Positions 54,321 through 58,754 of a stretch of 64,000 nucleotides of DNA are shown here, in pieces. The notes below the pieces were generated by a model that searched no databases, was not told the origin of the DNA, and worked only from the letters and a program-made list of their open reading frames with translations. How positions within the stretch are numbered: position 1 is the first letter of the stretch; every line of letters starts with the position of its first letter. The DNA is from an uncultured Prevotellaceae bacterium (GTDB lineage: Bacteria > Bacteroidota > Bacteroidia > Bacteroidales > Bacteroidaceae): assembly GCA_902778255.1 (NCBI GenBank), contig CACYXD010000006.1:144803-208802 (forward strand), in the 5' to 3' direction. The position numbers and the translations under genes were made by a program.

Positions 54321-56297
54321 ATGATGACTACTGTAAAGACCCTATTGACGACCCTTCTGATGGTCGCAACAGCGTGCCCAGTAATGGCGCAGAAAAAGAA
54401 AGCCGTTGTGGAACAGCCCAAAGATCCCAACGAGATGGTGGCTTATCTCTTTACTTATTTTAATAGCAACGACCCCAAGGACGAGCAGATATGCTATGCC
54501 CTGAGTGACGATGGTTATAACTACACGCCGCTGAATATGGGTATGCCTGTCATTGAGAGCGACACTATCGCTTTTACCCAGTGTGTGCGCGACCCGCATA
54601 TCCTGCGCGGTGAGGATGGCAAGACATTCTATATGGTGGTTACGGATATGCGTTCCAGTCTGGGTTGGAGCAGCAACCGCGGTATGGTATTGCTGAAGAG
54701 TACCGACCTGGTGAACTGGCAGCACTCTGCCATCAACTTCCCCACACGCTATACGAAGACATGGAAGAACGTGATCCGTGTGTGGGCACCTGAGACTATC
54801 TACGACCGCAAGGCTGGCAAATATATGGTGTTCTATTCTCTGCGCACCAGCGATGCGAAGTCGTACGACAAGATTTACTATCAGTATGCCAACAAGGACT
54901 TTACAGACTTGGAGGGTGAACCTCAGTGGATGTTTGACGCAGGCAATGCCACTATCGACGGCGACATTGTCTATAATGATGCCGATGGACTCTATCATCT
55001 GTTCTATAAACAGGAGTCGGGTAGGGGCATCTATCAGGCCGTGGCCAAGAACCTGACCGACAAGTGGCAGATGATCGATGGTAATGTGGAGCAGACCAAG
55101 GAGGCTGTAGAGGGTGTTGGTGTGTGCAAGGCCATCGATGGCAAGTCATGGATAATCATGTACGACTGCTACGGCAATGGTCATTATCAGTTCTGTAAGT
55201 CGGAAGACCTGAAAACCTTCAAGTTCGTGCAGAACACCGAGATGAAGGGTAAGTTTACCCCCCGTCACGGCACCATCATCCCTATCACCCGTGCTGAGAA
55301 AGAACGTCTGCTTAAGGCTTTCCCTAACTACAAACAGCCTATTCTCTCTGGCTTCCATGCCGACCCTGAGGTGCTCTATTCCAACAAGACGAAGAAATAC
55401 TATATTTATAGCACCACCGACGGCACACCTGGCTGGGGTGGTCATGACTTCAGCGTTTTCTCATCCGAGAACCTCATTGACTGGAAAGATGAAGGAAAGA
55501 TGCTCGACGTGAAGGGCGATCAGGTGAAATGGGCAACGGGTAATGCATGGGCTCCCTGTATCATAGAGAAAAAAGTGGGAAAGGCTTATAAGTATTTCTT
55601 CTATTTCTCTGCTCATAACCCTAAGAGCAACCGTAAAGAGATTGGTGTGGCTGTAAGCGATAGCCCTACAGGGCCTTTTGTGGATAGTGGTGCACCTATC
55701 ATCACCGATGCCGACCGTCCCAAGGAGGCTCGTGGCGGACAGGCTATCGATGTGGATGTTTTCCAGGATCCTAAGACCGGTAAGTACTATCTCTACTGGG
55801 GTAATGGTTTTATGGCTGGTGCCGAGCTCAATGACGATATGCTCTCTGTGAAGAAAGAAACCATCACCCACATGACACCAAAGGGTGGCAACCTGCAGAC
55901 ATGGGCTTTCCGTGAGGGTGCTTACGTGTTCTGTCGCAAGGGCACGTACTATTTTATGTGGAGTGTTGACGATACGGGTTCACCCAACTATCATGTATGC
56001 TATGGCACGGCAAAATCGCCCCTCAGCCCCATCACTATTGATGAGCAGAACTATATGGTTATCAAGCAAAAGCCTGAGGACCATATCTACGGCACCGCTC
56101 ACAACTCCGTGCTCCAGATTCCCGGCAAGGACGAATGGTACATCGTTTACCACCGCATCAACAAGAACTTCATCCGCCACGAACCAGGCATCCATCGCGA
56201 AGTCTGCATTGACCGCATGACGTTCGATAAGCAAGGGCGTATTATTCCCGTTGTGCCTACGCTCAATGGTCCTGAACCACTTGCAGCAAAGAAATAA
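54321..56297 (+). CDS. Secreted tandem GH43 glycoside hydrolase with two propeller domains
   Basis: Domain 1: RDPHI, WAPE, IDGDI, EGVG, RHGT. Domain 2: HADPE, WAP, IDVDVF, REG, HNSV. Confidence 0.9.
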   Translation: MMTTVKTLLTTLLMVATACPVMAQKKKAVVEQPKDPNEMVAYLFTYFNSNDPKDEQICYALSDDGYNYTPLNMGMPVIESDTIAFTQCVRDPHILRGEDGKTFYMVVTDMRSSLGWSSNRGMVLLKSTDLVNWQHSAINFPTRYTKTWKNVIRVWAPETIYDRKAGKYMVFYSLRTSDAKSYDKIYYQYANKDFTDLEGEPQWMFDAGNATIDGDIVYNDADGLYHLFYKQESGRGIYQAVAKNLTDKWQMIDGNVEQTKEAVEGVGVCKAIDGKSWIIMYDCYGNGHYQFCKSEDLKTFKFVQNTEMKGKFTPRHGTIIPITRAEKERLLKAFPNYKQPILSGFHADPEVLYSNKTKKYYIYSTTDGTPGWGGHDFSVFSSENLIDWKDEGKMLDVKGDQVKWATGNAWAPCIIEKKVGKAYKYFFYFSAHNPKSNRKEIGVAVSDSPTGPFVDSGAPIITDADRPKEARGGQAIDVDVFQDPKTGKYYLYWGNGFMAGAELNDDMLSVKKETITHMTPKGGNLQTWAFREGAYVFCRKGTYYFMWSVDDTGSPNYHVCYGTAKSPLSPITIDEQNYMVIKQKPEDHIYGTAHNSVLQIPGKDEWYIVYHRINKNFIRHEPGIHREVCIDRMTFDKQGRIIPVVPTLNGPEPLAAKK

Positions 56298-56310
56298 CAC
56301 TTTTCTGCTA

Positions 56311-56568
56311 ACACTTAACATTGCAAAAACGCAATGCACTTATTATAAGACACTTAAGTCTTATTTTAGCACAAAAAGCCCTAACATAACACTTAACATA
56401 GAGTTAACATAGACTTAACATTCATTCGTCAGCAAAAAAAGCGAAAGACAAAATTTGAGGTATCTCCTCATGTTAACTCTATGTTAAGTCTATGTTAAGT
56501 GTTGAAACTATGTTTTCCTTTCTAAAGTATTCAAAATGAAGACTTTACGTTCTGGCCATGTTAAGTCT
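56311..56568. repeat. Inverted arrays of an 11-bp unit (A[CG]A[CG]TTAACAT)
   Basis: Three units at 56389-56421, three inverted at 56470-56502, single outer units at 56311 and (inverted) 56558. Confidence 0.88.
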
Positions 56569-56624
56569 TGCGTAAAGACAATACTTTTGCAGAATAAATA
56601 AGGAAATGCATTCTTGATACGTAG

Positions 56625-56720
56625 TTCTATTCCCACGCAGGGACTCTATTGCTCCCAGCGTGGAACTGAATAGGTCTCAACGTGGGACTATATCGTTTCC
56701 AACGTGGGAGCAAAATAGAA
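56625..56720. repeat. 22-bp-period degenerate tandem repeat with terminal inverted repeats
   Basis: GG(G/A)A ends at 56640, 56662, 56684 and 56706; TTCTATT / AATAGAA termini. Confidence 0.8.
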
Positions 56721-56734
56721 ATCAAAATATTTCT

Positions 56735-56774
56735 GCCGAAAGTTTTGCGCTTTCGGCTTTTTTGTTTACCTTTG
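56735..56774 (+). promoter_or_regulatory. Promoter (-33 TTTG 56744-56747, -7 TACCTTTG 56767-56774) overlapping a terminator-like hairpin
   Basis: 19-bp spacer; hairpin GCCGAAAG / CTTTCGGC at 56735-56757 followed by T6. Confidence 0.75.
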
Positions 56775-56778
56775 CCCT

Positions 56779-57030
56779 GTCGTTCGGAGAAATGGACGAT
56801 GACATTGAGGAGAGCTATTAAGCTTTGACCCGTCTGAGAATCTGCAAAATTCAAAGTTGTATGGGAAAAAGTCTGAAAGGCTGCTTCTCCTGTAGTAGTA
56901 TATATACTGCTCACTCAGCTATGGAGTCAGCTTACATATATACCTGCAGGTGTGAGCTGATTTTCATTCTTTATACAACGGGTATTGCAGAACCTTCAGA
57001 CAAGGAATGTCGAGAAGGCTCACACCCTTT
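56779..57030 (+). ncRNA. Candidate structured RNA or long leader upstream of the BspA-like gene
   Basis: Nested complementary helices read by eye (see findings). Confidence 0.55.
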
Positions 57031-57071
57031 GTATATAAACGTAATTGTTTCTTTCTTTAAATATCGTTTAC

Positions 57072-58754
57072 ATGAATACAAGGAAATTATTCTCATTAAT
57101 TGTTTCATTTTTTTGCATAATGAAACTAAGTGCTGCCACGTTCACCTATAATGGAATTAACTACGAATTAAATGATCAGACGTTCACGGCTAGTGTTGTA
57201 CGAGGTTACTATTCGGGAGATATTGTTATACCTTCTAATATTACAAAGACATATATTTATACGGTGACTAGCATAGGCAGAAATGCATTTGAGGGCTGTA
57301 CGTATTTAAAATCTGTATCAATAGCGAATACTGTGACTTCAATAGGTGATTATGCTTTTCAGAATTGCACAATGCTAAGCTCAATAATAGTACCTAATAA
57401 CGTCACGAAGATTGGCTACAATTCTTTTAGGGGCTGTACAGGTTTAACGACCGTATCTTTAGGAACTAGTGTAACTACTATCGATGAATTTGCTTTTTTT
57501 GATTGTAGAGCTTTGACATCCATCACGTTTCCAAATAGCGTGACAAGTATTGGAAGATGGGCGTTTTATGGTTGTGATGCTTTAACTAATGTTGTGATTC
57601 CAAGCAGTGTCGTTAGTGTTGGAGGTGGAGCTTTTTCTCGCTGTCTCTCAATAAGTGTGGATTCTAAGAACAAGAATCTTGACTCTAGAAATCATTGCAA
57701 TGCTATTATAGAAACGGGATCAAATAAGCTTTTGGTTGGTTGTGCAAATACTATCATCCCCGATGATATTTCGTCTATTGGTAATTATGCATTTGACGGA
57801 TGTATTGGAATGGTCAATATTAATATACCGACCAGTGTTACAACTATCGGAATAAGCGCATTTGAAGGATGTGCAGGTTTAAAAACTATCATAATTCCAG
57901 GGAATGTAAACAAAGTAGACCAATGGGCTTTTCGAGATTGTACATCCCTTGAATCTGTTGTTATAAAAAAAGGCGTAACAAGTATTTACCAATATGCTTT
58001 TAATGGATGTTCAAGTCTATTATCAGTAACAATTGAAATCGACACACCTCCTTCCATTTCAACAGGAACTTTTTCTAATAGTTCAAACGCTACGCTATAT
58101 GTCCCTGTTGGCAGCAAATCGGCATACGAAGCTGCAACCTGCTGGCAAGATTTCAAGGAGATTGTGGAGATGGCAGATGAAATTACTATTGGCGCAGCAG
58201 GAATGGGAACCTACTGCAGCACACACGCACTGGACTTTTCTGGTACTGACGACGTCAAGGCTTATATTGTTTCTTCCTTCAAACCAAGTACTGGTGAAGT
58301 GACTCTGACACGCATTACTGACGTTCCAGCCAATACAGGAATTGTAGTGAAAGGCAATGCTGATACCTATACACTTCCTTGGGGACCTGGCGAAACCATT
58401 GTGTCGAATATGTTGGTTGGCGTAACGGAGAACACAGTACTGAATAAGGTAAATGGTGACTACACTAACTATATTCTTGCTAAAAAGAGTGGAAATCTCG
58501 GTTTCTATGCTGTTAGTGATGGTTCTACGCTGAGTGCAGGAAAGGCTTATCTGCCTCTGCCAACGGTAAGTCTGCCAAGTAGCGCAGGTGCTCGTGGAAT
58601 GGCACTAATCTTTGATGATGAGACAACGGAGATAGTTGATGTGCATAGTAAGATGCAGAATGCAAGTGGCATCTACAACCTGCAAGGTCAGCGCATCGAA
58701 AATCCCCAAAAGGGACTACACATCGTAAACGGGAAAAAGATTATGATTAAATAA
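57072..58754 (+). CDS. BspA-type leucine-rich repeat surface protein with Prevotella-type T9SS CTD
   Basis: Many VTxIGxxAFxxCxxLxxVxIPxS repeats; C-terminus GIYNLQGQRIENPQKGLHIVNGKKIMIK; signal peptide from MNTRK. Confidence 0.92.
   Translation: MNTRKLFSLIVSFFCIMKLSAATFTYNGINYELNDQTFTASVVRGYYSGDIVIPSNITKTYIYTVTSIGRNAFEGCTYLKSVSIANTVTSIGDYAFQNCTMLSSIIVPNNVTKIGYNSFRGCTGLTTVSLGTSVTTIDEFAFFDCRALTSITFPNSVTSIGRWAFYGCDALTNVVIPSSVVSVGGGAFSRCLSISVDSKNKNLDSRNHCNAIIETGSNKLLVGCANTIIPDDISSIGNYAFDGCIGMVNINIPTSVTTIGISAFEGCAGLKTIIIPGNVNKVDQWAFRDCTSLESVVIKKGVTSIYQYAFNGCSSLLSVTIEIDTPPSISTGTFSNSSNATLYVPVGSKSAYEAATCWQDFKEIVEMADEITIGAAGMGTYCSTHALDFSGTDDVKAYIVSSFKPSTGEVTLTRITDVPANTGIVVKGNADTYTLPWGPGETIVSNMLVGVTENTVLNKVNGDYTNYILAKKSGNLGFYAVSDGSTLSAGKAYLPLPTVSLPSSAGARGMALIFDDETTEIVDVHSKMQNASGIYNLQGQRIENPQKGLHIVNGKKIMIK

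Follow-up and report, generated by a model that had tools for sequence, protein, structure and literature searches.

The intergenic region studied here opens after a GH43 gene that ends at position 56297 of the window, by which we mean the whole 64,000-nucleotide stretch of DNA that was analysed, and it holds a promoter and a structured leader RNA ahead of a gene for a BspA-type leucine-rich-repeat protein. This gene (57072..58754, + strand, starting with the ATG at 57072) encodes a protein of 560 amino acids with a signal-like sequence at its N-terminus and a match to PF13306 (LRR_5) at E 2e-69. The promoter (56744..56774, +), as read from the sequence, consists of a -33 element TTTG at 56744-56747, a 19-nt spacer and a -7 element TACCTTTG at 56767-56774; this is the Bacteroidetes -33/-7 consensus, as the original prediction had stated. 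Transcription is predicted to start near 56780, and the BspA-type gene is presumably co-transcribed with the leader RNA, which would make up the first ~290 nt of its mRNA. A terminator-like hairpin, GCCGAAAG...CTTTCGGC followed by a T run (56735..56766, +; 9-bp stem with 5 G-C pairs), overlaps the promoter spacer and belongs to a promoter cassette of ~40 nt that recurs before unrelated genes. Copies of the cassette at 56725-56774, comprising the hairpin and the consensus -33/-7, were seen over 30-40 nt at 90-100% identity before unrelated genes of the same genome and of many other species, for instance ahead of the ORF starting at position 1540 of locus L002. Two other repeats lie further upstream. 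The first, at 56388-56503, is a 34-nt inverted repeat, 94% complementary, with a 48-nt loop and units of the TTAACATAGA type; it has related copies on two further contigs of this genome and is probably a small palindromic dispersed repeat. At 56628-56718 four motifs of the CGTGGGA/TCCCACG type form two nested hairpin-like inverted repeats, with a 77% identical copy on another contig and weaker copies in two other species.

Folding of positions 56779-57030 (+) with RNAfold gave -82 kcal/mol compared with a mean of -62.5 kcal/mol (sd 4.9) for dinucleotide shuffles, corresponding to a z score of -3.96 with 0 of 200 shuffles as good, and the minus strand of the region folds less well (-69.9 kcal/mol, z -3.2). 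For comparative analysis a covariance model built from 8 copies was used to align 71 full copies from rumen Prevotella. The modelled partners pair in 93.1% of the alignment cells, against 82.0% in column shuffles and 36-50% (~40%) when the partners are slid, and 45 of the 76 pairs show double-sided changes (579 cells; 0 of 500 shuffles as high). G-U and U-G pairs outnumber A-C and C-A pairs by 534:123, an excess indicating that it is the + strand which folds. The folding z score, the covarying pairs and the G-U asymmetry thus bear out the suggestion that the RNA is under structural selection. On this comparative evidence 56779-57035 (+) is a genuine, strongly conserved folded RNA of ~260 nt, made up of a 5' hairpin and a long rod.

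All helices of the original prediction are present and lie within one base of where it had placed them; the small corrections concern GTATATAT, which starts at 56898 and not 56897, and the 5' hairpin, which is 56779-56800. Support is best for this 5' hairpin, for the lower rod, in which 56832-56862 pairs with 56973-57001, and for the upper rod with its apex. The 5' hairpin P1 (56779..56800, +) is variable in sequence with its pairing kept, and all 4 of its 4 modelled pairs change on both sides. It is followed by segment A (56807..56826, +), with the conserved GAGGAGAGC and a small AGAGC/GCUUU hairpin, which may pair either with segment D to close the rod or with segment B in the alternative fold described below; comparative support for these pairings is weak. 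The 5' arm of the lower rod (56832..56862, +; GUCUGAG, UCUGCAA, AUUC and GUUGUAU) is the most conserved core of the family and faces the 3' arm (56973..57001, +; AUACAAC, GGGU, UUGCAGA and UUCAGAC) in helices 6-8, where double changes were found in 6 of 7, 2 of 11 and 6 of 7 pairs respectively. Segment B, GCUGCUUCUCC (56880..56890, +), shows mostly C/U changes opposite invariant G (helix 10). The upper rod and apex (56889..56950, +; helices 10-14) contain CCUGUAG/CUGCAGG, GUAUAUAU/AUAUAUAC and an apical hairpin; this part varies in length, and the apex is absent in three copies (L029, L092 and L112). Next comes the hub, or segment C, an invariant GGUGUGAGCUGA (56949..56960, +), and directly 3' of it an invariant U-rich run, UUUUCAUUCUUU (56961..56972, +); the 12 nt after the hub hold 7-9 U in 70 of the 71 copies. 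The unit ends with segment D, GGCUCACACC, and a U-rich tail, CUUUGUAUAU (57017..57036, +). One proposed element did not stand, namely the closing pair GACATT/AATGTC, for which 75% of cells pair with zero compensatory changes. An alternative pairing of GGAGAG in the 5' part with UUCUCC was likewise rejected, having an A-C mismatch in half of the copies.

BLAST against related genomes showed that the similarity begins at the -7 box and ends at ~57032, with unrelated flanks. A pattern scan of species-representative genomes found 72 loci, nearly all in rumen Prevotella or Prevotellaceae metagenome-assembled genomes, and a covariance-model search placed the leader RNA in 49 of 151 species of the genus, with 1-3 copies each, and at the family level in 17 of 35 sampled genera. 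The model matches the window at 56773-57042 with 280 bits; as this is among the best scores, the window copy is taken to be intact. Some variants (L116-L125) are short, 130-160 nt, and consist of no more than the lower-rod core with a reduced apex. The family appears to be new. In a cmscan of 55500-58500 and of seven divergent loci, no Rfam 15 family matched the leader RNA at E up to 1, in line with the predicted absence from Rfam, and our literature search found no description of it. The remaining matches in the window were weak and lay off the leader RNA; one to RT-11 at 56458-56583 was dismissed as chance-level, its 21.8 bits falling far short of the gathering score, 143.5. In another genus a DUF805b RNA motif (Rfam RF02914; L107 2642-2676) scored 42 bits, above the gathering score, ~900 nt downstream of a leader copy. 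The leader RNA resembles 6S RNA in being rod-like, ~200 nt long and furnished with conserved internal loops, but it has no Rfam 6S match, and 6S is a single-copy housekeeping RNA of nearly all genomes whereas the present RNA is patchy, occurs in 1-3 copies and heads a gene. It shares with ROOL, GOLLD and raiA a complex conserved structure and a first sighting in rumen and gut bacteria; unlike these it is smaller, keeps a fixed leader position and does not match their models.

A TAnnTTTG box lies directly upstream of the RNA, at the equivalent position, in 63 of the 71 copies, and 59 of the 71 loci have a same-strand gene within 260 nt downstream (median gap 34 nt, typically 20-60 nt). Only 2 of these 59 gaps contain a TAnnTTTG box. 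Since the gap almost never carries a promoter of its own, the RNA is taken to be a 5' leader, which supports the proposed long regulatory leader; it sits, as an attenuator does, between a promoter and the first same-strand gene. The genes that follow are very diverse. BspA-type LRR genes are the commonest, with 14 of 56 downstream neighbours, and the others encode lipoproteins, TerB-like and SPFH-GYF proteins, PvuRts1I/SRA and other restriction enzymes, GIY-YIG, Sel1 repeat and WG repeat proteins and many proteins of no known family. The BspA-type gene of the window thus belongs to the commonest kind of cargo, and the idea of an element-borne RNA that has come to drive a surface-protein gene finds no support; nor does the suggested link with Bacteroidales tyrosine integrases, as no integrase family occurs among the 56 downstream and 40 upstream neighbours.

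The RNA might instead be a stand-alone stable small RNA of ~255 nt that stops with the U-rich tail behind 57027 or is cut out of the 5' UTR by processing. It would then act in trans and might, for instance, sequester a protein on its conserved rod. In favour of this are a promoter of its own, a 5' hairpin that could protect it, pairing of its 5' and 3' ends and a U-rich run after the last helix, and the rod core, which is retained in the short variants, is extremely conserved as would be expected of a protein-binding surface. We nevertheless consider this unlikely, because the RNA is oriented toward a nearby gene without its own promoter box, because its presence and copy number are patchy and because the promoter and RNA can be duplicated together before a second operon: in one complete genome a 469-bp unit, comprising the whole intergenic region and the RNA, stands ahead of two operons at 98% identity. 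Least credible of the readings that we weighed is that the region serves as a retron-type msr/msd template or is coding, be it for a leader peptide or as an ORF of ~100 amino acids. The long imperfect hairpin does recall a retron msd, and in other copies an ATG after an additional upstream strand (see below) opens frames of up to 135 codons. Yet the likeness to a retron is superficial, with no reverse transcriptase beside any copy examined and no such family among 96 neighbouring proteins or the window genes around the RNA, and the ORFs range from 14 to 135 codons without a conserved end and are matched by no spanning frame in the window copy.

How could such a leader act? The hub faces segment B in the rod and is also complementary to GCUCACAC (57019-57026) within segment D, with which GGUGUGAGC (56949-56957) can form a long-range helix. 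With wider sampling this hub:D helix comprises 10 bp, is 98.4% paired and has 4 pairs with double changes, a level reached in 0-1 of 500 shuffles. On the Prevotella-only alignment it was no better than shuffles, because there is nearly no variation there; additional compensated variants occur in other genera. Support for A:B and hub:B pairing was weak in the comparative data, for hub:B also in the wider family. When the 3' domain is folded alone it adopts the hub:D hairpin in 70 of 71 copies, with energies of -25 to -32 kcal/mol. This hairpin spans 80 nt and is followed by the U-rich tail, whose richness is modest (median 5 U in 9 nt). The window sequence folds into the rod at -82.7 kcal/mol and into the split fold, in which the two halves fold separately, at -77.7 kcal/mol (-48.7 plus -29.0), a gap of 5 kcal/mol, and the median gap over 70 copies is 5.3 kcal/mol. 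Splitting is locally cheapest at the hub boundary, yet it costs only 5-14 kcal/mol anywhere along the RNA. The near-equal energies of the two modelled folds are therefore suggestive of a switch and not decisive.

These data suggest that the leader could be a two-state gate on the downstream gene. In the rod fold the hub would be hidden by its pairing with segment B, and the 3' strand would be closed up with the 5' strand. The split fold would have the 5' half folded on itself and the hub paired with the 3' strand, giving an 80-nt hairpin of about -29 kcal/mol with a U-rich tail, the look of an intrinsic terminator. A protein or another factor that shifts the balance would then decide whether RNA polymerase gains access to the gene. 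Two folds ~5 kcal/mol apart, one of them with a hairpin and a U-rich tail, suggest an attenuator-like arrangement, and we think that the leader probably works as such a gate on gene expression, the mechanism being read from predicted structures.

Alternatively the rod and the hub:D helix could coexist in a single static pseudoknot; with a small ligand or a protein bound to it, this fold would act on the stability or translation of the mRNA and not on termination. Both the lower rod and hub:D covary, the weakly supported part of the rod being the one that uses the hub (hub:B); the intervening loops of 15 and 16 nt are long enough, and the invariant unpaired stretches could make a binding pocket. 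On the other hand the cargo genes share no pathway that would point to a ligand, as would be expected for a riboswitch, and the region of the start codon is unconserved and unpaired in every predicted fold. We regard a static pseudoknot of this kind as quite improbable and prefer the two-state gate.

A gate of this kind would have precedents. Protein-dependent terminator/antiterminator leaders include pyr of Bacillus subtilis, controlled by PyrR, and the bgl/sac leaders, controlled by BglG/SacY/LicT, whose RNA binding is set by phosphorylation. Like these, the present leader is long and lies between promoter and first gene, one of its strands would have mutually exclusive partners, one fold presents a hairpin and a U-rich run, and a regulator gene and a kinase are found near many loci. 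It differs in having no sequence or Rfam relationship to them, in being far larger with its 170-nt rod, in heading mutually unrelated genes and in that the nearby protein has an XRE-like, DNA-binding look and is not of the PRD or PyrR type. Closer in phylogeny, the capsular-polysaccharide loci of Bacteroides have 5' leaders under antitermination by UpxY, a NusG-like protein. The two cases share the phylum, a long 5' UTR before surface-structure genes and, if our reading holds, control after initiation; they differ in that no UpxY-like gene is adjacent to the leader RNA and that its conserved fold is common to many loci whereas UpxY-controlled leaders are locus-specific.

About half of the copies carry a fuller module, in which an A run and a strand such as UCAGCUCACA lie just upstream of the proximal promoter. 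This strand is perfectly complementary to the hub and covaries with it from genus to genus (TCAG/CTGA, AACG/CGTT, ATGG/CCAT, AGTC/GACT and ...CCCAC/GTGGG...). In a MAFFT alignment (A10) the resulting 12-bp helix is 95.3% paired versus 86.2% when shuffled, with double changes at 9 pairs and in 49 cells; the sequences were partly picked for having the upstream complement, which inflates these statistics somewhat. In 34 of 38 copies the strand is preceded, at a distance of 10-25 nt, by a second TAnnTTTG box, and direct repeats AAAGGAM..AAAWGGAM, 11 nt apart, stand 25-30 nt before the second box in 25 of 33 loci versus 1 control region. The box and the repeats suggest that the strand is probably transcribed, from what would be a regulated upstream promoter, and that its helix with the hub would be an RNA helix. 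In locus L069 the upstream strand reads GAAGGCTCACACC, resembling segment D and not the usual upstream strand, a hint that a duplication may link the upstream strand to the 3' end of the RNA.

An inverted repeat around a promoter could also be read at the DNA level, as an invertible promoter between the upstream strand and the hub or as a MITE-like palindromic repeat. The covarying repeat of these other copies, its arms ~235 bp apart, does enclose the promoter, and the unit is multi-copy with unrelated flanks; as in Bacteroidales invertons, a short inverted repeat brackets a promoter before surface-protein genes. In metagenome contigs, however, the inverted junction was found 0 times against at least 120 for the normal junction, there is no recombinase among the neighbours, the right-hand repeat lies inside the covarying RNA, and both the excess of G-U pairs and the compensatory changes all along the rod speak for RNA. 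The window copy moreover lacks any upstream repeat, and we consider a DNA-level element very improbable.

The fuller module has a protein side as well. A gene for a 185-aa protein occurs within 3 kb upstream in 30 of the 71 loci, usually divergent and 40-130 nt from the RNA, and in 26 of these 30 a membrane Hanks-type Ser/Thr kinase is also present. Across 151 genomes both RNA and protein were found in 40, the RNA only in 9, the protein only in 36 and neither in 66, counts that carry no test statistic and come from related genomes. The 185-aa protein has the motif TLKRxWGY and belongs to no Pfam, NCBIfam or PADLOC family; an Atlas search returned only clusters of hypothetical proteins. Its AlphaFold model (pLDDT 86.7) shows a five-helix N-terminal domain and a small C-terminal beta-barrel. 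Residues 1-86 gave recurrent weak matches to XRE-type HTH domains with VIA-align (Z 4-5), and a Foldseek search of the PDB with the barrel gave weak Sm-like matches only. Fusions of the N-terminal domain with PvuRts1I/SRA-type nuclease and helicase-type proteins also occur (L057:539-1471; AlphaFold DB clusters), and at some loci the gene immediately downstream of the RNA encodes this domain.

As we picture it, the full module would add three parts to the leader: an upstream promoter with a direct-repeat operator, the hub-complementary strand and the kinase/185-aa gene pair. For the window copy neither the upstream strand nor the operator nor a second promoter was found. The sole homologue of the 185-aa protein in this genome is a 191-aa protein of the TLKRxWGY family, 37% identical, encoded with a Hanks kinase on another contig (L098, contig 1, ~208400-210400). 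That pair is divergent from a gene for a secreted protein; the promoter of this gene bears a different operator, two AATGGGCTGRAATGGAC repeats, and is followed by no leader RNA. Any tie between the window copy and that regulator is therefore hypothetical. The window copy is thus a cut-down form, in which the consensus promoter, probably unregulated, stands directly before the leader and the BspA gene.

Taken together our results point to a best explanation that we consider fairly probable when all its parts are taken as one: the window RNA would be one copy of an uncatalogued 5' leader RNA family of Prevotella and related genera, the leader would serve as a two-state gate, and the window would hold the cut-down form of the module. 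For the fuller copies we can go further only tentatively. There the RNA may serve a so far undescribed regulon for signalling as its portable cis element; in this regulon the kinase and the XRE-like protein would act on the operator and upstream promoter; transcripts from the upstream promoter would carry the strand that captures the hub and those from the inner promoter would not, and the choice of promoter would thereby set the fate of the leader and the expression of whichever accessory surface or defence gene has had the cassette copied before it. We put this forward as a possibility that is on balance doubtful.

Prevotella are dominant bacteria of the rumen and gut, and to our knowledge the control of their genes after initiation is almost unstudied. 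In at least 17 genera the leader RNA described here heads many accessory genes with roles at the cell surface, in envelope stress or against phage. Its covariation is unusually clear, its hub has several conserved partners and in many genomes it lies alongside a kinase and an uncharacterised regulator. It is a good candidate for a new Rfam family, and it offers a testable way into the switching of variable surface and defence genes.
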